Assembly (NCBI GenBank): GCA_002774635.1
Contig: PEXU01000056.1
Coordinates: forward strand, 1 to 46,784
Origin: Candidatus Kerfeldbacteria bacterium CG08_land_8_20_14_0_20_40_16
GTDB taxonomy: Bacteria > Patescibacteriota > Patescibacteriia > UM-FILTER-42-10
Length of the DNA stretch: 46,784 nucleotides
Reading direction: 5' to 3'
Shown piece after piece: positions 84-29,316 of the stretch (position 1 is the first letter of the stretch; the number at the start of each line of letters is the position of its first letter). A program made the position numbers and the translations under genes. The notes under the pieces are model-generated. The model was given only the letters and a program-made list of their open reading frames with translations. It did no database searches and was not told the DNA's origin.

Positions 84-172
84 GCGCCGTTAGTCCCGAT
101 GCCCCTAAGTAAATTCGGGGATCGGGATCCCGACTTCCCCGCAAGGAGAACGTCGGGACTCAGCCAGGTAGA
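84..172 (+). pseudogene. 5' part of a split tRNA-Lys (acceptor strand GCGCCGT), interrupted by tandem palindromes at 94-158
   Basis: GCGCCGT-TAG[insert 94-158]CTCAGCCAGGTAGA matches the D-arm of the intact tRNA-Lys at 679. GCGCCGT is the exact complement of ACGGCGC at 898-904. Confidence 0.8.
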
Positions 173-256
173 CCTGCCCCCGCCCGATTGCTTCGCATTC
201 GAAGCGGGCGGGCGTTTTGCCTTGCGGTTTTAAAAGTTAATTTAAATAAAATACTC

Positions 257-348
257 GGGCGCATAGCTCCCGTCCGCCATCGGCTCGCCGAAGGCGTGCC
301 GGGCGGGCAGCCAGGTAGATCCGCCAGCTGGCGGACTCTTAAGCAAAC
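257..348 (+). pseudogene. Truncated 5' copy of tRNA-Lys(CTT) with two palindrome insertions, directly upstream of the GIY-YIG ORF
   Basis: GGGCGCATAGCT[269-307]CAGCCAGGTAGA[320-335]CTCTTAAGCAAAC. The non-insert segments are identical to the tRNA at 679-755, and the second insert replaces GCAGTTGC. Confidence 0.85.
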
Positions 349-351
349 ATA

Positions 352-606
352 ATGTTTAGTGTTTACGTAGTATACAATAGAATTTATAATAAAATTTACA
401 TTGGGTATACTTCGGATTTAGAAGCGAGATTAAAACGCCATAATGGCATATTAAAAAATAAAAAGAAGTCTTTTACTAGCAAAAATAAAGGTAAATGGGA
501 ACTGATTTATAGTGAACAATCATCCACAAGAAAAGACGCTATAAAAAGAGAAAAAGAATTAAAAAGTTATAGAGGAAGAGAGTTTATTAAAAGCAAGATA
601 AAGTAA
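352..606 (+). CDS. Small stand-alone GIY-YIG nuclease family protein
   Basis: VYVV...IYIGYTSDLEARLKRHN and A..RE..LK motifs; 84 aa. Confidence 0.92.
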   Translation: MFSVYVVYNRIYNKIYIGYTSDLEARLKRHNGILKNKKKSFTSKNKGKWELIYSEQSSTRKDAIKREKELKSYRGREFIKSKIK

Positions 607-615
607 CCGACATTA

Positions 616-644
616 GCCCCCATAGCTCAATTAGTAGATCCGCC
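616..644 (+). pseudogene. Short tRNA 5' fragment ending in a palindrome half (TCCGCC)
   Basis: GCCCCCA-TAGCTCAATTAGTAGA then TCCGCC, the same GTAGA^ junction as at 319/320. Confidence 0.55.
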
Positions 645-678
645 CCTTTTACTCTTTACAAATTTACATATTTTTATC

Positions 679-755
679 GGGCGCATAGCTCAGCCAGGTA
701 GAGCAGTTGCCTCTTAAGCAAACGGTCGGGGGTTCGATTCCCTCTGCGCCCACCA
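679..755 (+). tRNA. tRNA-Lys(CTT)
   Basis: Acceptor GGGCGCA/TGCGCCC, anticodon loop CT-CTT-AA, GGTTCGATTCC T-arm, encoded CCA. Confidence 0.96.
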
Positions 756-835
756 ATAAATTATGTTAAATTCCGAAATATCAAAGCAAGGCAGGCCCGT
801 CCATCCCGCATCTATGGGATGATCGGGCAGGCGGG

Positions 836-908
836 GCAGTTGCCTCTTAAGCGTACGGTCGGGGGTTCAAATCCCTGCCTGCCGGCAGGCAGGCCTCACG
901 GCGCACCA
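836..908 (+). pseudogene. 3' part of the split tRNA-Lys(CTT), with a 20-bp palindrome in the T-stem
   Basis: GCAGTTGCCTCTTAAGCGTACGGTCGGGGGTTCAAATC[CCTGCCTGCCGGCAGGCAGG 874-893]CCTCACGGCGCACCA. Confidence 0.85.
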
Positions 909-1143: not shown

Positions 1144-1992
1144 ATGAACAACCGAAATTTCCGAAAACTGTTGGAGAATCAATGGTCTCGCGGTAACTTC
1201 GTCTGCGTTGGACTCGACAGCAGGTTGGATAATATTCCAAAGTCCATGCTCCAAAGTGGCAGTGAAAGCAATGTCAGTATCGCTAACACCATCGTCGCGT
1301 TCAACCGAGCAATCGTGGAAGCAACCAAGAACCTTGTGTGTGCCTACAAGCCGAATAGCGCGTTCTATGAAGCGTATGGTGCTGAGGGGCTTGCTGCTTT
1401 ACACCGAACTATCGTTGATATCCACATTCTAGCGCCGGATGTTCCGGTGATCCTCGACGCCAAGCGGGCAGACATTGGCAACACCAATGCGGGCTATGTG
1501 GAAGCAGCATTTGACTTTCTACAAGCAGACGCAATCACAGTTAATCCCTATCTGGGAGCTGAAGCACTTCTGCCATTTCTGGCACGAGCAGAGAAAGGCA
1601 TCATTGTGCTCTGCCGTACTTCCAATCCAGGTGCGGGCGAGTTTCAGGATTTGTCAGTGAACGACGAGCCGCTCTATCTTTTCGTGGCGCGTCGCGTCGC
1701 CAGTGAGTGGAATAAGAACGGCAACTGCGCGCTCGTCGTCGGCGCCACCTATCCTGATGAACTTCGGGAGGTACGCGAAATTGTCGGCGACATGCCAATT
1801 CTCATTCCTGGAATCGGCGCCCAAGGCGGCGATGTAGAGAAGACTGTCTCCGTAGCTAAGAACAGCCGCGGACAGGGCATGATTATCAATAGTTCGCGCG
1901 CCATCATTTTTGCCTCGAAAGACGCAGACTTCGCCGAAGCGGCTCGCCGCGAAACAGAGAAGCTCCGCGACGCAATCAACCAGTACCGATAG
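1144..1992 (+). CDS. pyrF: Orotidine-5'-phosphate decarboxylase
   Basis: CVGLD, YKPNSAFYE, ILDAKRADIGNT, VVGAT, LIPGIGAQGG, INSSR motifs. Confidence 0.96.
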   Translation: MNNRNFRKLLENQWSRGNFVCVGLDSRLDNIPKSMLQSGSESNVSIANTIVAFNRAIVEATKNLVCAYKPNSAFYEAYGAEGLAALHRTIVDIHILAPDVPVILDAKRADIGNTNAGYVEAAFDFLQADAITVNPYLGAEALLPFLARAEKGIIVLCRTSNPGAGEFQDLSVNDEPLYLFVARRVASEWNKNGNCALVVGATYPDELREVREIVGDMPILIPGIGAQGGDVEKTVSVAKNSRGQGMIINSSRAIIFASKDADFAEAARRETEKLRDAINQYR

Positions 1993-2007
1993 GAAGTAGG
2001 TAAAATT

Positions 2008-2745
2008 ATGAACATACTAGAAATGACAGAACGAGAGCTTTTAACACTTGGAGTTGAAGATGTTAGCCGTTCTTTAACTCCTGAAGAGGTCGTACATATA
2101 GCCAAAACTCGCGGAGCATTCTGGGTCTACAACTACGAAGCGGCCAAACAAGGGAATGTTGGAATGCACGCCAGCTTGAAGTCTGGTCTTCACAGCGACG
2201 GCTTTTTCATCTCCCGAATCCTGCTGGCATCAGAAAACATCAGACGAATCATTTCCAGCCAAATGGTTATGAGGATTAAGGAAGCTCTCTGTGAGAATGA
2301 CATGCCCAGTGGCGTTGTGGGCGTCCCAGACGGGGCCACTAAGATTGGCGAGGATATTGGCAAAATGTTCGGGATAAATGTCCTTAAGATGGGAAAGATC
2401 GAGGGTCAAATTGTTTCCTCGTCGCCAGTGGATCCCCAGGAGCGGATTTTAGTGGTTGAGGATTTCTGTACACGGGGAACTGGTTTCACCGAAGCGGTAC
2501 GAGCAATCAAAGCAGCCCAACCTAAAGCACAATTCATACCTTACGACCCAGTAATTATCAATCGCGGAGGGCTGAAAATCATTTTTGTGGAAGGAACCGG
2601 TGAATTTAAAATCTGCCCTGTTGTTGAATGGAGAGTCCAAGATTGGGATCCAGAGAAATGTCCTCTCTGTAAAATGGGTTCTGTTGCCATCAAACCAAAG
2701 GCGACAGACGAAAACTGGAAAGCAATCACCACTTCTCAATTGTAA
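2008..2745 (+). CDS. pyrE: Type I phosphoribosyltransferase, probably orotate PRTase
   Basis: LKSGLHS and PRPP-binding ILVVEDFCTRG motif; directly downstream of pyrF. Confidence 0.75.
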   Translation: MNILEMTERELLTLGVEDVSRSLTPEEVVHIAKTRGAFWVYNYEAAKQGNVGMHASLKSGLHSDGFFISRILLASENIRRIISSQMVMRIKEALCENDMPSGVVGVPDGATKIGEDIGKMFGINVLKMGKIEGQIVSSSPVDPQERILVVEDFCTRGTGFTEAVRAIKAAQPKAQFIPYDPVIINRGGLKIIFVEGTGEFKICPVVEWRVQDWDPEKCPLCKMGSVAIKPKATDENWKAITTSQL

Positions 2746-3027
2746 GCTAAATATCGAACAACCAAAGGGTAAAGCGGCACCCATCAACAAAACAAAGCCG
2801 CTTTTTTCTTTTCTAAAAAGAATCTATCGCTAAAGCAGTAAATTTTCAAAAAAAACAAAAAATCCATCAAAATCCAGTAAATAAAACACCGATCAAAACC
2901 GGTTTTTTGTTTATTTATTGACAGCGGTTCCTAATTCCAGTAAGGTAGAGTAACGCTCTTTTACAAATAACTGAGTACAAAAACTTTAAATCATAAACTG
3001 CTGCACAATTTTTAGGAGGACCCGAGC

Positions 3028-3873
3028 ATGTCTTTTCCCATAGCTCTTATTACCGGTACAGGGATGGATGAACTATTTTCTCCCAAAACCGAGGAAAAAA
3101 CTGGGCTACCTGTCTTTAAAACTGAATTAAAACACGTTGCTAGAACTACTCATGGAGGTCCGGTACGCGCCCAAATTGTCCGAGGTGATGGTCTAGAATT
3201 TCTGTGGCTTGACCGGCACAATTCATCAAAACGGTACTGCTGTCCCCATGAAATCAATTCTGCTGCTTACATGAAGATGCTGTACGACAACGGCGTACAA
3301 TTCATCTTCGCTACCTCCGCAGTGGGCGGCATTAACAGGGCTGGATTTGACCGTTTAGAAGTCGGCTCTTTAGTTATTCCCGAAGACTTTATTGATCTTA
3401 CTAAAGGGTCATATACTTTTAACAATCCAGCTCATACTCATCCTTTAGCCTTCTATCGTCCCCCGGCAGGTCTCTTTTGCCCTGAAATGGCAAAGCTATT
3501 TCCAGAAGCTGATATCCAAAAGGGTGGAATTTACACCAGTGTGCCGGGACCCCGCTACGAAACACGGGCGGAAATTGCAATGATAAAAAACTTTCATCCG
3601 GAGGCACGGCTGTTAGGAATGACCATTCCTCCTGAAGCATCACTGGCTCGAGAGATAGCGGTTCATTATTGTCCGATTTGCATTGTGGCTGATCTGCCCC
3701 TCGAGGAAGGCTCTGTTAATGGGAGTTCCGTTGAAGATGTTGTCCGCCAGGCTAAGAAAGCGGTTCTTACTGCTATCCTCTCGGTAATGCATAAAGTGCC
3801 AGAAGTCAGCGCTGGCTGGCAATGCGACTGCGGCAAGATGGATCCGGTATTTAAAATTTTACAATCCGCCTAA
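3028..3873 (+). CDS. MTAP-family purine nucleoside / methylthioadenosine phosphorylase
   Basis: IALITGTG, RH...PH.IN, SAVGG, GPRYETRAE, GMT..PEA.LARE motifs. Confidence 0.88.
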   Translation: MSFPIALITGTGMDELFSPKTEEKTGLPVFKTELKHVARTTHGGPVRAQIVRGDGLEFLWLDRHNSSKRYCCPHEINSAAYMKMLYDNGVQFIFATSAVGGINRAGFDRLEVGSLVIPEDFIDLTKGSYTFNNPAHTHPLAFYRPPAGLFCPEMAKLFPEADIQKGGIYTSVPGPRYETRAEIAMIKNFHPEARLLGMTIPPEASLAREIAVHYCPICIVADLPLEEGSVNGSSVEDVVRQAKKAVLTAILSVMHKVPEVSAGWQCDCGKMDPVFKILQSA

Positions 3874-3933: not shown

Positions 3934-4878
3934 ATGTTTTACAATACAAATATGAAAAAAGAAACGATAACCATAGAACCAAAAGATAAAGGAAAGCGTT
4001 TAGATAAGCTCTTAGCAAAAAAATTTCCCAATTATTCCCGTTCGCACTTCCAAAAATTAATCAAAGAAGCAAAAGTATCGGTTAACGCCCAGAAAATAGC
4101 CGCCCATACTCTCCTTAAAGAAAATGATAAAGTAACTATTGAACCAGTTGAACCAATAAAGATATCCCTAAATCCTGATTCCTCTATCAAATTGGATATT
4201 GTGTTTGAAGACCAAGACTTTCTAATAATTAATAAACCGGCGGGAATGGTGGTACACCCTTCCCAGAGCAATCCCGAGCATACTTTAGTAAATGGTATTC
4301 TTGTCCACAATCCTTCCATCGCCTTAGTTGGCGATAACGCTCTTAGGCCCGGAATTGTCCACCGGTTAGATAAAGAAGTCTCTGGATTGATTGCTGTAGC
4401 AAAAAACCAACTTTCATTTTTACATCTAAAAGAGCAGTTTTTAAAAAGAACAATCAATAAAAAATATCTGGCGCTGGTATATGGAAAACTAAACCAAGCG
4501 GAGGGTAAAATAGATTTGAGTATTGGGCGTTCCAAAAGAAAGCCGTTTCGCATGTCGGTGAAACAAAAAGGAGAAGGGAAGTCCGCTCTCACTTATTACC
4601 GTGTTCTCAAGGAATATAGATATTATTCTTTATTAGAGATTAAAACTAAAACCGGCCGGACTCATCAAATTCGAGTGCATCTTTTCTCCTTTGGTCATCC
4701 GATTGTCGGAGATAAAATATATCAGATAAAAAGTATAAAACCGGCTAAAGATCTTGATCGAATTTTTCTTCATGCTAGCTTTCTTCAATTTACGGGAATA
4801 CAGGGAGAAATAAAAAGGTTTCAGGTTGACTTGTCCAGTGAATTAAAAAATTATCTTATAAAATTAAAAGGCTGTTGA
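3934..4878 (+). CDS. rluD: RluA/RluD-family 23S rRNA pseudouridine synthase with S4 domain (start possibly 3952)
   Basis: RLDK S4 domain, NKPAGMVVHP, IVHRLDKEVSG, TGRTHQIRVH. Confidence 0.92.
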   Translation: MFYNTNMKKETITIEPKDKGKRLDKLLAKKFPNYSRSHFQKLIKEAKVSVNAQKIAAHTLLKENDKVTIEPVEPIKISLNPDSSIKLDIVFEDQDFLIINKPAGMVVHPSQSNPEHTLVNGILVHNPSIALVGDNALRPGIVHRLDKEVSGLIAVAKNQLSFLHLKEQFLKRTINKKYLALVYGKLNQAEGKIDLSIGRSKRKPFRMSVKQKGEGKSALTYYRVLKEYRYYSLLEIKTKTGRTHQIRVHLFSFGHPIVGDKIYQIKSIKPAKDLDRIFLHASFLQFTGIQGEIKRFQVDLSSELKNYLIKLKGC

Positions 4879-5383: not shown

Positions 5384-5535
5384 AAACTTTTTTAACCAGG
5401 CGAGTGATTATTAGTAAGCTCGGGCAAGTTAAAGCCAAAGACTTGAAGAGCAGAAGCGAGCAAGTCTCGCGAAGCGGGACTTAAGAGAGCGTCGACGAAT
5501 GCGAGCTGGCGCAGCATTCGGCGCTGCCCGGGACA

Positions 5536-5554
5536 CAAGTCCTCTCCGCGGCAC
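5536..5554 (+). repeat. 19-bp direct repeat of the tRNA-Leu 3' end
   Basis: CAAGTCCTCTCCGCGGCAC is identical to 5363-5381. Confidence 0.85.
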
Positions 5555-5559
5555 TTAAG

Positions 5560-5685
5560 GGGTGCGTAGCTTCCGCCTTCGTCCCGCAGGCGCGGGACCT
5601 CGGCGGACAGGCAGTTGGTTAGACCCGCCCGACTGCCTTGACGGCAGTCAAAGCGGGCAGGGCGCATGGTTTATACCTGCCCGCC
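5560..5685 (+). pseudogene. Palindrome-interrupted 5' copy of tRNA-Val
   Basis: GGGTGCGTAGCT[5572-5611]CAGTTGGTTAGA[5624-5661]GCGCATGGTTTATA[CCTGCCCGCC]; matches the tRNA-Val at 5720. Confidence 0.82.
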
Positions 5686-6780: not shown

Positions 6781-8994
6781 TTAACTATCTACTCTAGTAA
6801 TTAGAGATGCTTCGCCGTTTTGGACTACTAGGTCACTGCCTTTTATTTTTAGTTCCAGGATGTGAAGATAAACGCCTTTTCCTTCGGGAGCTTTGAGAAT
6901 AAGCTGAAATGTGCCAATGTCTCCTGATTTCACTGCTTTTTCTTTTAGAGAAAACTGCCCTTGGGTATTTTCCCAAGAGCTATCTTTAAATCGGCTTGTT
7001 TTTTTACCCAAATCATAAACATTAAGTATCAGGTTTTGATCCCAGGTACCAATTCCGGTGTTTTCAAATTTAACAGTTACCGGTATTTTCCAATAATTAA
7101 GAACGGCTAAAGGGATATTCTGCGAGACTAGCTTCGCCTGATAGGGTGAATCGATTCGCGTAACGGAATGATTTTCTTCTTGGATAATTTCATTCTTACC
7201 AATCAAACGATAAATATTTTTGAAAATCCCTAGCTCGCGCGGTGCTTTAAGTTTGAGAGTGAAAGTTGCTATCTTATTTGTTTTAACCTCTGTTTCTTCA
7301 AAATCTAATTGACCATACTGATCATTCCAACTTTTATCATAAAACCGACTGATTTGATCATCTAGGTCATAAATATTTAATCTTACTTCCCCTTTTTTCC
7401 AAGAATTGATTCCTTCATTTCTAAATTCAAATGTTACTAATTGCGTATCATTAAGAAACATCGCCAGGTTAATACTACGGTTTTTCAATTTAGCAGCGAA
7501 AGGCAAGTTAGTAATCTTCACCGTTACTTGAAATTCAGATTTTTTCTGAATTTTATTATCAAAGGCAAGTGAGAAACTTTCCGATGTTTCTAATAGATCA
7601 ATAGGAGCTTTTAAGTTAAATGTGAATCTTCCTATTTCGCCTGGTGCTACATTAGGAGAATCCAAATAAGCTACTATTGATTCTGCTTCCCAATCAGATC
7701 CTTTCAAAACCGATGGAGGATTTTTAGCAATAACGTAAGGTTGATTAATTCCGTAATTGTGCCAAGTGACATTTCCCTCATTTTTAAATTCCACCCAAAA
7801 CTGCTTCTCTTTACCAGTATCTATTGCGAGAGACTGCTTGCTTTGCTGAACATAAGTCGCTTTGATAATAGGATCCGCAATTCCGTTAAGAACATCATAC
7901 TTTTTTTGGGCCAAATCGCGTATTGTTCCCAGTTTCTGGTACAAGTTTGTTCCTGGGCAGGCGGTACAGTCTAGATCCTTATGACCAACAATATGAGGAT
8001 AAGTGTTATCAATCATGTATCCTTCTCCCTTGGGTTCAATTCCAAACTCTTTTCCTTTTACGGCGATTAAATCGGCTAAAGCGTTCTTCACTTTGCTGTT
8101 TAGGGTTAAGCCATCTTCATAGTTGCCCAAGACAGCAATACCAATCGTTCCCTTGTTAAAATCAGCTTCATATTGCTCGCCGCCGAATCGGAATCGGGCA
8201 CAGATTTTAGTGCGATACACATGCGCTCCGATCACTCCGTCGCCACCATAACGACCTTCGTAAATATTACCATTTTGATCAATTAAGTAATTATAACCAA
8301 TATCCCCCCATCCTAAGACCGTGGAATGCCAGTAGTAAACCCCCCTCACTGCTGCTGCGGGATTGTCGCCGCCAGTACTGCCCGCGGTGTGGTGAATCAC
8401 AAATTTTTCCGGTCTTTGATAAGAAGCAGGCCAAATTTCCTTATCCGAACCGCTAAAACGCCAGTCTTCGTCCGCCCCCCATTCAGAGCGAGGAATAATC
8501 TCTAGACTATCCGCCGCCTGAGCCTTGGAAAAAAGGAAGTCAAAAATATTTCTTTTCTTAAAATTGCTTCCCGAAGATTCTCCTAGATAAATCAACTTGA
8601 TGTTTTTTAAATTAGCTGACGAGTCAACTTTGTACTGAAGCTCGGTCCCTTTATTTGCCACAATCGGATCGGTGGAATAATACCAGCCATCCCTTTCAAG
8701 GTAATCTTCAATTTGCTGCCACTTGCTCCATCCGCTGGAATCATGATAACGGAGACTAATTCCGACTGTTTCTCTTCCTTGCCAGGCAACACCAAAGACG
8801 TTAAATTTAAAATCAGTTTTTAAAACAGAAGATAAATATTCGCCGTTGCTCACTACCATTGCGCTATCTCGAATTTCTCTCCGCTCTATTTTCGCTTTTC
8901 CCGAGGCAGTCCCTTGTGAACACAAAAAAACAGTTGACAACAAAGCAACTGCTCCGATAGTAAAAAATTTGGTTAGTTTAAGACCTTTTTTCAT
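6781..8994 (-). CDS. Secreted N-acetylmuramoyl-L-alanine amidase (PGRP/Amidase_2) with C-terminal NBR1-Ig-like repeats
   Basis: Signal peptide; PRSEWGA, VIHHTAG, GWGDIGYNYLI, GHKDL..TACPG; repeated F.N.G..W...GE..F.F.L.AP modules. Confidence 0.88.
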   Translation of the reverse strand: MKKGLKLTKFFTIGAVALLSTVFLCSQGTASGKAKIERREIRDSAMVVSNGEYLSSVLKTDFKFNVFGVAWQGRETVGISLRYHDSSGWSKWQQIEDYLERDGWYYSTDPIVANKGTELQYKVDSSANLKNIKLIYLGESSGSNFKKRNIFDFLFSKAQAADSLEIIPRSEWGADEDWRFSGSDKEIWPASYQRPEKFVIHHTAGSTGGDNPAAAVRGVYYWHSTVLGWGDIGYNYLIDQNGNIYEGRYGGDGVIGAHVYRTKICARFRFGGEQYEADFNKGTIGIAVLGNYEDGLTLNSKVKNALADLIAVKGKEFGIEPKGEGYMIDNTYPHIVGHKDLDCTACPGTNLYQKLGTIRDLAQKKYDVLNGIADPIIKATYVQQSKQSLAIDTGKEKQFWVEFKNEGNVTWHNYGINQPYVIAKNPPSVLKGSDWEAESIVAYLDSPNVAPGEIGRFTFNLKAPIDLLETSESFSLAFDNKIQKKSEFQVTVKITNLPFAAKLKNRSINLAMFLNDTQLVTFEFRNEGINSWKKGEVRLNIYDLDDQISRFYDKSWNDQYGQLDFEETEVKTNKIATFTLKLKAPRELGIFKNIYRLIGKNEIIQEENHSVTRIDSPYQAKLVSQNIPLAVLNYWKIPVTVKFENTGIGTWDQNLILNVYDLGKKTSRFKDSSWENTQGQFSLKEKAVKSGDIGTFQLILKAPEGKGVYLHILELKIKGSDLVVQNGEASLITRVDS

Positions 8995-28281: not shown

Positions 28282-29316
28282 ATGATTATTCTCGGAATCG
28301 AAACATCCTGTGATGAAACCGCCGCCGCGATTGTTCAGAATAAAAGCGAGCGCTTTGAGATACTTTCCAGCGTTGTTTCTTCGCAAGTGGATATCCATGC
28401 CAAAACCGGCGGCATTGTTCCAGAAGTAGCCGCCCGGGAGCATATTAAGAATATACTGCCGATTATTGACCAAGCGCTTAAAAAAGCAAGTATGGATTAT
28501 CACAAAATTGACGCGATTGCAGTTACTGCCGGACCCGGTCTAATTACTTCTCTGCTAGTAGGAGCAGAAACCGCTAAAGTTCTTTCCTATACCTGGAATA
28601 AACCGTTAACTGCCATAAATCACTTAGCGGCTCATATTTATGCTAACTTTATTTCCGCCAGCTGGCGGACCAAAATTCAATTCCCCCTACTAGCTTTAGT
28701 GGTATCAGGAGGACACACTGAGCTGGTTTTAATGAAGAAGCATCTGGATTACCAAGTGATCGGTCAAACCAGAGATGATGCGGCTGGAGAAGCTTTTGAT
28801 AAAGTGGCCAAGCTTTTGAATCTTGGTTACCCGGGCGGCCCGATTATTTCTAAATTAGCAAAGGATGGGGATCGTAAGGCGGTTGATCTGCCTCGGCCGA
28901 TGATTAAAGAAAATAATTTTGACTTTAGTTTTGCCGGTTTAAAAACCGCTGCTCTATATAAAATTCAATCTGGCAAATACAACTTAAAAGATAAAAAAAC
29001 AATTGCTGATTTTTGCGCTTCTTTTGAGCAAGCAGCGATTGATGTTTTAGTAGAAAAAACAATCAAAGCGGCCAAAAAATATAATGTAAAATCAGTCTTA
29101 CTTTCTGGAGGAGTGGCCGCTAACGAACTGCTTAGGGAATCTTTAAAGACAAAGATTAAAAAAGAACTTCCTTTCTCCCACCTCTCACTCCCCACTCCTA
29201 AACTTTGTACTGACAATGCCACCATGATTGCGGCAATAGGATATTATTATGCTGTAAAAAAGGGTTTCACTCCATGGCAAAAAATAGAAGTAGATCCTAT
29301 CTGGCAGCTTGGTTAA
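28282..29316 (+). CDS. tsaD: tRNA N6-threonylcarbamoyltransferase TsaD
   Basis: ILGIETSCDET, GGIVPEVAAREH, GPGL, NHL.AH, VSGGHT, DDAAGEAFDK, GGVAAN, TDNA.MIA. Confidence 0.98.
   Translation: MIILGIETSCDETAAAIVQNKSERFEILSSVVSSQVDIHAKTGGIVPEVAAREHIKNILPIIDQALKKASMDYHKIDAIAVTAGPGLITSLLVGAETAKVLSYTWNKPLTAINHLAAHIYANFISASWRTKIQFPLLALVVSGGHTELVLMKKHLDYQVIGQTRDDAAGEAFDKVAKLLNLGYPGGPIISKLAKDGDRKAVDLPRPMIKENNFDFSFAGLKTAALYKIQSGKYNLKDKKTIADFCASFEQAAIDVLVEKTIKAAKKYNVKSVLLSGGVAANELLRESLKTKIKKELPFSHLSLPTPKLCTDNATMIAAIGYYYAVKKGFTPWQKIEVDPIWQLG

Follow-up and report, generated by a model that had tools for sequence, protein, structure and literature searches.

The contig PEXU01000056.1 of Candidatus Kerfeldbacteria bacterium CG08_land_8_20_14_0_20_40_16 (assembly GCA_002774635.1), here called the window (46,784 nt), carries at positions 84-908 a split tRNA-Lys(CTT) gene whose two parts enclose a second broken copy of the same gene, a small GIY-YIG nuclease open reading frame (ORF), a third tRNA-Lys fragment and one intact tRNA-Lys(CTT). 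Small GIY-YIG ORFs lying between an intact tRNA and a partial copy of it recur at other tRNA genes of this genome, in its relatives and in Bacteroidota. In our interpretation, a selfish cassette of the homing type invaded one tRNA-Lys gene repeatedly at this locus and would preserve its target by duplicating it, a reading to which we assign a probability of roughly 0.55.

The window is contig C7 of the source genome, G000 (1.13 Mb in 62 contigs, 39.7% G+C, 35 tRNA genes, estimated 96% complete), which was compared with its five closest relatives, G001 to G005; G001 belongs to the same genus. The DNA originates from groundwater or aquifer metagenomes, and the relatives are Patescibacteria. All features of the window described below lie on the forward strand.

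Architecture of the nested tRNA-Lys locus

Joining by script the slices 84-93, 159-172, 836-873 and 894-908, and leaving out the hairpins at 94-127, 128-158 and 874-893 together with the 663-bp block at 173-835, yields a sequence that ARAGORN reads as a 77-nt tRNA-Lys(ctt). The first-pass annotation of this DNA had proposed that the split copy rejoins to a full-length tRNA-Lys(CTT) with complementary acceptor halves unlike those of the inner tRNA. Both proposals hold, the acceptor stem of the joined tRNA being a perfect 7-bp helix that differs from that of the inner gene, and so do all the coordinates given with them (CCTGCCC at 173-179, GGGCAGG at 825-831, GTAGA ending at 172 and GCAGT starting at 836). 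The anticodon stem of the joined tRNA contains one T.T mismatch and one T.G pair, and such decay fits an outer tRNA-Lys that is a dead copy.

The 5' acceptor strand of this outer gene, GCGCCGT, occupies 84-93 with tRNA positions 8-10. A double hairpin (94-158), recognized by its inverted repeats and its fold, separates the TAG from the CTCAG of the outer tRNA (-35.8 kcal/mol, z -4.5, none of 200 shuffles being as good), and an equivalent TCCCGA...TCGGGA hairpin pair is found at the matching tRNA position in a tRNA-Val pseudo-copy on contig C4 of G000. The D-arm piece CTCAGCCAGGTAGA (159-172, repeat family D2) ends with GTAGA at the break. The 3' part (836-908), with the anticodon arm, the T arm, the acceptor strand ACGGCGC and ACCA, is matched by direct repeat D1 (823-876 versus 690-743, 83% identical) and is itself interrupted by a perfect 20-nt palindrome (874-893) that recurs in G000 at C24:18979-18998 and C25:9160-9179 and in many genomes of the class. 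Beyond it, reading of the sequence places a stem-loop followed by a T run at 917-944, likely the terminator of the whole locus. A promoter and terminator scan of 1-1200 listed this stem on the minus strand only, and found sites no more frequently than in shuffles.

The block inside the outer gene is bounded by hairpin elements. The left one (173-226, inverted repeats I8 and I22) has relatives at C4:15800-15851, C4:15202-15235 and C24:18888-18916 of G000, all in tRNA loci, and the right one (789-835, inverted repeat I18, fold z -3.5) has a relative at C12:2842-2887 of G000, 9 bp from a tRNA-Arg. Between them, an AT-rich leader (239-256), which duplicates the leader of the intact gene (661-678; direct repeat D3, 239-269 versus 661-691, 81% identical), precedes the second broken 5' tRNA-Lys(CTT) copy (257-348). 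This copy has the acceptor strand GGGCGCA of the inner gene, reaches about tRNA position 44 and scores 33 against a shuffle maximum of 24. It carries a hairpin (270-307) and a 16-nt palindrome (320-335) that stands where the 5' strand of the anticodon stem would be. On contig C54 of G005 and at locus L084, this palindrome has the same sequence and the same place. The window holds a second exact copy of it at 28654-28669, where the nearest tRNA is 1.7 kb away and the nearest GIY-YIG ORF 1.8 kb.

The 84-amino-acid nuclease ORF (352-606) follows, and then, on reading the sequence, a third and decayed tRNA-Lys 5' fragment (615-660) with the acceptor strand GCCCCCA and the degenerate start of a palindrome. 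Positions 615-644 are 97% identical to C6:7877-7906 of G001, where a fuller version of this fragment, palindrome included, precedes a tRNA-Lys(ctt) with no ORF in between. The intact tRNA-Lys(CTT) of the window (679-755; ARAGORN, Rfam tRNA model at 67.3 bits) is the sole intact one in G000. Besides the GIY-YIG gene, the block at 173-835 contains no ORF of at least 60 amino acids and no integrase or recombinase ORF. The outer tRNA-Lys would be the older gene, split in its D arm between GTAGA and GC by the hairpin-bounded block; lodging such a whole block in the D arm appears a cruder event than the duplication of the cassette.

Logan contigs from four other groundwater or aquifer runs, which may share one sampling campaign, match the window with 0-2 differences. 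They cover the left half of the locus at 49-726 (run X4), 63-726 (X7), 141-726 (X5) and 43-589 (X3), and the right half at 699-2000 (X3), 730-1152 (X5) and 866-1365 (X7). The two halves are independently supported and overlap at 699-726, since contigs of these four other runs cover both. None of the contigs of the four runs covers 84-908 in full. The break falls near 726 in all of them, within the inner tRNA, a sequence common to many organisms of the community.

Recurrence of the unit at tRNA genes

Small GIY-YIG ORFs number seven in G000 and 6-12 in each of its five closest relatives. Thirty-seven loci could be compared (the seven of G000 and the 30 with retrieved DNA among 44 hits in G001-G005). 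A tRNA lies within 400 bp of the ORF at 25 of them, in every case on the strand of the ORF, while regions up to 500 bp from a tRNA make up only 3.2% of the genome. The tRNA is located 7-228 bp downstream of the ORF at 21 of these loci and only upstream at four. A 5' remnant of the same tRNA stands upstream of the ORF at 14 of the 21 loci with a downstream tRNA, with scores well above those of 50 shuffles. The enrichment of small GIY-YIG ORFs at pairs of broken and intact tRNAs, suggested in the first-pass annotation, is therefore strongly positive. The family is present in 55 of 61 genomes of the class (G000 and 60 from other families) in 1-14 copies, and the best locus per genome in these other families has a tRNA within 400 bp in 15 of 28 cases. 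A mirrored arrangement, of intact tRNA, ORF and 3' copy, characterizes the tRNA-Val type.

The window itself contains a second cassette at a tRNA-Glu (26513-26926). Its 5' remnant (26513-26583) carries two palindromes mid-anticodon (26548-26577) and is followed by the ORF (26595-26873; PF01541 E 2.9e-16, 60 bits) and by the intact tRNA-Glu(ttc) at 26852-26926, into which the GIY-YIG frame extends by 22 nt. Remnant and intact gene differ in the acceptor strand and are identical over positions 8-35 (28/28 nt). The acceptor stem also differs between remnant and intact copy at the Lys locus; at the Gln locus described below, the intact copy is identical to the native gene.

Nested tRNAs are found without an ORF as well. 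Intact tRNA-Leu(cag), tRNA-Arg(ccg), tRNA-Pro(ggg) and tRNA-Met genes of G000 (C54:23333-23597, C12:41900-42140, C1:37903-38128 and C6:37900-38240) each lie within the halves of a dead copy of the same tRNA, with GC-rich inverted ends. On the minus strand of C6 of G001 (locus L050, about 7990-8200), a tRNA-Phe-like gene holds in its anticodon loop an intact tRNA-Arg(tcg) with flanking 10-nt inverted repeats, the one case seen of nesting in the dead gene of a different tRNA. Leader and trailer lengthen the acceptor stem by 12-14 bp in a tRNA-Arg on C6 of G001 and in the tRNA-Pro nest.

Empty and filled sites

Presence and absence of the free-standing nuclease gene at a conserved site are seen within the genus at a tRNA-Tyr and a tRNA-Gln site. 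The empty tRNA-Tyr site on C47 of G000 consists of tRNA-Thr(ggt), 49 bp and tRNA-Tyr. The filled site on C76 of G001 has a Tyr remnant that reaches the T loop and contains four palindromes, then a GIY-YIG ORF and an intact tRNA-Tyr; ahead of the remnant, a split tRNA-Thr encloses an intact tRNA-Thr. At the second site, G000 has a plain tRNA-Gln(ttg) on C46. The upstream flank of the corresponding site on C58 of G001, 87% identical over 306 bp, ends directly in a Gln remnant; the ORF comes next, and then a tRNA-Gln that matches its G000 counterpart at 76 of 76 positions. The remnant covers positions 1 to about 63 and, apart from three palindromes, is the same as the intact gene. Because remnants free of point changes already carry them, the palindromes arrive fast or with the event itself.

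Further observations point to turnover of the nuclease gene. Internal stop codons interrupt five of the 44 hits in the relatives, and the Lys lineage is patchy, with a homolog of 60% identity in G005 and none above 43% in G001-G004. Together with the invariant catalytic residues described below, the copies with stop codons fit the cycle of gain, decay and loss of homing-type genes.

The nuclease and its relatives

The window ORF matches the Pfam GIY-YIG family PF01541 with E 6.2e-15 and 55.7 bits (cut-off 22.6). A profile of 30 relatives retrieves the UPF0213 structures 1zg2 (BH0048, 1.6e-15) and 1ywl (EF2693, 3.4e-13) from the PDB, then SLX1 nuclease domains (1.2e-7 to 1.2e-5), I-TevI (1.7e-3) and UvrC (0.58). 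By these comparisons the window protein is a member of the UPF0213/Slx1-like (URI) branch, nearer to UPF0213 and SLX1 than to I-TevI or UvrC. The catalytic core of GIY-YIG nucleases comprises two tyrosines, a glycine, an arginine and a glutamate. These residues are present in the family of the window protein, where the 30 paralogs compared all have Y5, Y16, G18, R26, H30, E55 and K71, and conserve R66 and E67 at 90% or more. A phage origin of the nuclease was rejected, as the window protein had no tblastn match at E 1e-3 among 50,697 phage records.

The closest public homologs, at 44-64% identity, comprise four genes of Patescibacteria and about 75 of Bacteroidota and allied groups (79 loci, 182.5 kb in total). 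A tRNA is present within 400 bp at 60 of the 79 loci. At 55 of them it is on the same strand 12-250 bp upstream, mostly 12-70 bp, and is nearly always tRNA-Met(cat), whereas at the four loci of Patescibacteria it is tRNA-Lys(ttt). Among the 54 loci with an upstream tRNA and enough downstream sequence (52 with tRNA-Met(cat), two with tRNA-Lys(ttt)), 47 have a partial copy of that tRNA after the stop codon of the ORF. Two Bacteroidota loci (L087:269-610 and L110:702-1115) contain tandem 90-94-nt units just upstream of an intact tRNA-Met and the GIY-YIG gene, each unit combining a tRNA-Met pseudo-copy with the palindrome and a leader. One array has 3.8 copies (96% identity) and the other 4.4 (100%), and this high identity suggests recent amplification.

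A tree of the nucleases (57 rows, 79 columns, quick search; stop-codon rows removed, 24 of the 79 public loci used) groups the window protein with the four Lys-linked Patescibacteria proteins in a five-row clade with a support of 96 in the Shimodaira-Hasegawa-like approximate likelihood ratio test (SH-aLRT). This clade is nested in a 24-row clade with Bacteroidota proteins, mostly Met-linked (SH-aLRT 99), and both are apart from the six paralogs of G000. The Ser, Gly, Glu and Gln clades follow tRNA identity, with one Tyr-linked copy within the Gln clade. The nuclease lineages therefore appear, on this alignment, to track the identity of the tRNA.

A palindrome conserved in position

In all six loci of the Lys lineage, remnant, palindrome and ORF occur together, and in the pseudo-tRNA-Lys beside the ORF a 15-16-nt palindrome of the TCCGCC...GGCGGA type stands between GGTAGA and the anticodon loop. 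Pseudo-copies upstream of the ORF and those downstream of it share this layout, and in one variant both arms of the palindrome have changed together. The Bacteroidota pseudo-tRNA-Met shows CTCATA, the same palindrome and then the T arm. A hairpin of this type is present within 250 nt outside the ORF at 63 of the 79 public loci. The pattern TCCG-N8-CGGA occurs 137 times in 64 of these loci, compared to about one occurrence and a maximum of three in composition-matched shuffles. Positions 5 and 6 of its arms are both complementary in 126 of the 137 instances, with five pair types (91, 17, 11, 5 and 2 instances). Owing to this fixed position, these counts and the compensatory changes, we regard the palindrome as a conserved part of the unit and not as random debris. 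No Rfam family corresponds to it.

The first-pass annotation had proposed that dead copies take up palindromes. Broken copies do bear GC-rich palindromes, but the TCCG-N8-CGGA family is fixed in position, shows compensatory changes and is present in unsubstituted remnants too. The pattern is also found away from tRNAs in G000 (28 sites versus 2-7 in shuffles). GC-rich hairpins as a whole are about fourfold enriched near tRNAs in this genome, yet 331 of 378 hairpin clusters lie more than 500 bp from any tRNA.

A homing cassette and the alternatives

The observations above are compatible with a mechanism in which the nuclease would break its cognate tRNA gene and the break would be repaired from a cassette-bearing copy, the tRNA sequences flanking the ORF serving as homology arms. 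The recipient would then carry the ORF between two tRNA copies. Since one tRNA copy suffices, the second would decay or be disabled by GC-rich palindromes. The ORF would finally lie either between a 5' remnant and the intact tRNA or between the intact tRNA and a 3' remnant. Target function would be kept through duplication rather than splicing. The inner tRNA of the window is the only tRNA-Lys(CTT) of its genome, which supports the homing reading. Nuclease cleavage, invasion of tRNA genes and transfer are what we infer from the sequence comparisons. Accordingly, the nuclease-plus-tRNA cassette envisaged in the first-pass annotation stands as a recurrent unit lodged in tRNA genes, with empty and filled sites, and its invasion of these genes is probable rather than observed; nests without an ORF also exist. 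The idea that the cassette supplies a functional copy fares likewise: a working tRNA does recur beside the ORF, but import of a foreign one is not borne out at the tRNA-Gln site, where the two genes are identical.

Several points weigh against the homing reading. At the tRNA-Gln site the downstream flanks of the two genomes do not align, and local duplication explains the site equally well because the intact copy is identical to the gene of the empty site. The empty-site alleles that had been called for exist at the tRNA-Tyr and tRNA-Gln sites but not at the window's own tRNA-Lys site, where no contig joint between 172 and 836 was found in the four runs, contigs being prone to drop rare variants; the sides of the joints listed there measure only about 20 nt, and these joints probably derive from tRNA-Lys genes of other organisms. 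The protein is a bare catalytic domain, which leaves its target specificity unexplained. The intact tRNA next to the ORF retains the presumed target, and immunity to self-cleavage is unexplained. Small GIY-YIG ORFs have no nearby tRNA at 12 of the 37 loci of G000-G005, at 13 of the 28 loci of other families and at 19 of the 79 public loci, and at least four loci of G000 (Leu, Arg, Pro and Met) are tRNA-in-tRNA nests devoid of an ORF. The support for the tree is limited by its 79 columns and quick search, and the near-constant tRNA-Met linkage in Bacteroidota could reflect old vertical inheritance.

An alternative that we consider unlikely is that the nuclease gene is resident, passed on vertically and engaged in some cellular function at tRNA loci, and that the duplicates are by-products of local recombination rather than of invasion. 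The gene might serve to repair or amplify tRNA genes, or to defend against an attack that targets tRNAs; in a variant of this idea the gene would be half of a toxin/RNA-antitoxin-like pair with the hairpin-bearing pseudo-tRNA repeats. In type III toxin-antitoxin systems, RNA from a tandem repeat array beside the nuclease gene neutralises the protein. Arrays of pseudo-tRNA and hairpin units are present in some Bacteroidota loci, there is no array in the window, and we know of no RNase activity of the GIY-YIG fold. The stable Bacteroidota linkage, with 55 of 79 loci having a same-strand tRNA upstream, is what a resident gene would show, as are the tandem arrays of pseudo-tRNA-Met and hairpin beside the gene and the compensatory changes of the palindrome, of the kind expected for a functional RNA or protein site. 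According to PMC13096335, tRNA amplification driven by SegB benefits its phage, and PMC1564403 reports an Slx1-like domain fused to a tRNA methyltransferase, from which its authors suggested a role in RNA metabolism. Such a gene is difficult to reconcile with 6-12 diverged paralogs per genome of 1.1-1.4 Mb, each at a different tRNA, with sites that are empty or filled within one genus, with copies bearing stop codons, with a Lys lineage that is patchy within one family, and with a Patescibacteria protein that is nearer to Bacteroidota proteins than to its own paralogs.

Still less likely, in our view, is that the GC-rich hairpin elements are the mobile agents, similar to miniature inverted-repeat transposable elements (MITEs) or repetitive extragenic palindromic (REP) sequences, some of them carrying a tRNA between their inverted ends. 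They would insert into structured tRNA DNA, and the insertion would survive only where a second tRNA copy exists; the GIY-YIG protein would be a passenger or a structure-selective enzyme serving the hairpins, not a homing enzyme with sequence specificity. This would account for the nests without an ORF, whether in G000 (Leu, Arg and Pro, with inverted GC-rich ends) or in G001 (Thr, and Arg in a Phe-like gene), and for the breaks in the tRNA-Lys of the window, the tRNA-Thr of G001 and the tRNA-Leu and tRNA-Arg of G000, which all come after the D-loop GGTA and are no more than about 2 nt apart. Seven of the nine non-self copies of the locus hairpins in G000 lie within 411 bp of an intact tRNA, unsubstituted remnants already hold two or three palindromes, and the nearest solved relatives of the nuclease include SLX1, a structure-selective nuclease. 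However, inverted repeats of at least 9 nt flank 5 of the 34 testable tRNAs of G000 compared to 188 of 2000 random sites, with no clear enrichment, and on this control the broader notion that every tRNA is a terminal inverted repeat element was dropped. The remoteness of most hairpin clusters from tRNAs also argues against hairpin agents, no transposase accompanies them, and the feature whose lineage tracks tRNA identity is the ORF, not the hairpin.

A more doubtful proposal again is that the nuclease has no sequence specificity of its own and that the pseudo-tRNA and palindrome form a cis-acting guide or landing module, giving a homing guided by homology and structure that could be retargeted by swapping the pseudo-tRNA. 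The tRNA-derived arms would pair with the cognate tRNA gene, as RNA or single-stranded DNA, and the resulting hairpin or branch would be bound and cut by the Slx1-like structure-selective nuclease. Such swaps would account for the changes of tRNA inside a single protein lineage (Lys to Met, Gln to Tyr).

Finally, an artefact of assembly close to a metagenomic contig end is extremely improbable and was largely rejected: the locus does lie only 84-908 bases from the contig end, next to a very abundant repeat (bases 1-80, summed contig depth 4,000-26,000), and is spanned by no single independent contig, but the contigs of four other runs agree with its layout, and the architecture is also contig-internal at five other G000 loci and found in dozens of other genomes, closed chromosomes included.

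Relation to known systems

The first-pass annotation had not recognized the locus as a described element class. Our search of the full-text literature found no link between UPF0213-type or other small GIY-YIG genes and duplicated tRNA genes of bacterial chromosomes, a search to which subscription journals and supplements were external and in which an earlier description may thus have been missed. Close analogues are in print, so the kind is not wholly new. The closest, together with the mitochondrial ORFs described below, is SegB of phages T4 and T6, which PMC2330249 describes as a free-standing GIY-YIG homing endonuclease in a tRNA gene cluster, with a site that contains the tRNA T-loop motif, promoting the inheritance of itself and of neighbouring tRNA genes; PMC13096335 adds that it drives tandem amplification of a tRNA+segB unit. 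SegB and the window element share a GIY-YIG gene among tRNA genes, and the remnants of the Gln/Tyr lineage break in the T loop. The window element differs in being on a bacterial chromosome instead of a phage, in encoding an 84-amino-acid protein of the UPF0213/Slx1-like branch, and in having its ORF between the tRNA and a pseudo-copy that bears a conserved palindrome. The tblastn search of the 50,697 phage records at E 1e-3 gave no sequence match to SegB-like endonucleases.

The same logic as intact tRNA, ORF and 3' remnant is seen in the mobile ORFs (mORFs) of fungal mitochondria (Allomyces atp6; Glomus atp6, atp9, cox2 and nad3), where, according to PMC3630166, an endonuclease ORF and a replacement gene part sit in an essential gene and the displaced native part stays as a remnant beside the ORF. 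Their targets are protein-coding organelle genes and their nucleases mostly LAGLIDADG, whereas here the targets would be tRNA genes of bacterial chromosomes, and either end of the gene may be the remnant, marked by palindromes. As for the protein, YhbQ and YazA are listed as members of the Slx1 family in the review PMC7017083, which also attributes to Slx1 an extra zinc-finger domain and the partner Slx4. The UPF0213/YhbQ/YazA/Slx1 URI family contains the sequence kin of the window protein, but Slx1 has these extra parts and proteins of the window type are the bare domain. The literature searched contained no link of the UPF0213/Slx1 family to tRNA genes or homing.

Group I introns with homing endonucleases occur in bacterial tRNA genes, where tRNA function is retained. 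They are similar to the window element as mobile nuclease genes in a tRNA gene that do not abolish its function, but the function is kept here by a second gene copy and not by splicing, and the insertions are in the D arm, anticodon arm or T loop. An intron was also rejected directly, no Rfam intron family being found in 1-1200 (E up to 10) or in seven related loci (E up to 0.01). Islands borne by integrases insert into tRNA genes too, and a partial tRNA duplicate flanks the inserted DNA in both cases. The inserts here are ORFs of about 250 bp, in many cases the remnant is a 5' part, and the acceptor stems of the copies are different; with no recombinase ORF in 173-835, an integrase-type island was rejected.

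Introns and inteins spare their target by splicing themselves out. If the homing reading is true, carrying or creating a spare copy would be a third way for a homing element to spare its target, and it may explain the tRNA fragments and nested tRNA genes that litter the 1-Mb genomes of Patescibacteria, in which tRNA genes are mostly single-copy. For annotators, such nested tRNA loci are real. The large UPF0213/YhbQ-type family has solved structures and no role assigned in the literature searched, and selfish nucleases in tRNA genes would be a candidate role. The palindrome beside a minimal nuclease offers biochemistry a defined candidate substrate, and genetic tests are feasible since Bacteroidota relatives are found in cultured species.

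Surroundings of the locus

The first 80 bases of the window belong to a non-coding repeat of about 75 nt, whose summed contig depth in the four runs (4,000-26,000) compares with 5-10 elsewhere in the window. Copies are found in many genomes of the class, often at contig ends, and the repeat has no significant fold and no Rfam match. On contig C10 of G010, two inverted copies flank a membrane-protein gene, one of them directly after a tRNA-Ile.

Synteny of the window locus was set through an rluD-like gene, which is directly 3' of tRNA-Lys in G001 and is located at 3934-4878 in the window (75.5% amino-acid identity). As rluD directly follows the tRNA in G001, the roughly 3 kb between them are present in G000 only. 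They include a block at 1144-3873 with pyrF (PF00215), an unassigned ORF of 245 amino acids and a gene of the PNP_UDP_1 phosphorylase family; pyrF was not found in G001-G005. This block may be an acquired nucleotide-metabolism island beside the tRNA locus. Further along the window, at 5384-5620, GC-rich and hairpin-rich debris 3' of a tRNA-Leu(gag) contains a 19-nt exact copy of the tRNA 3' end (5536-5554).

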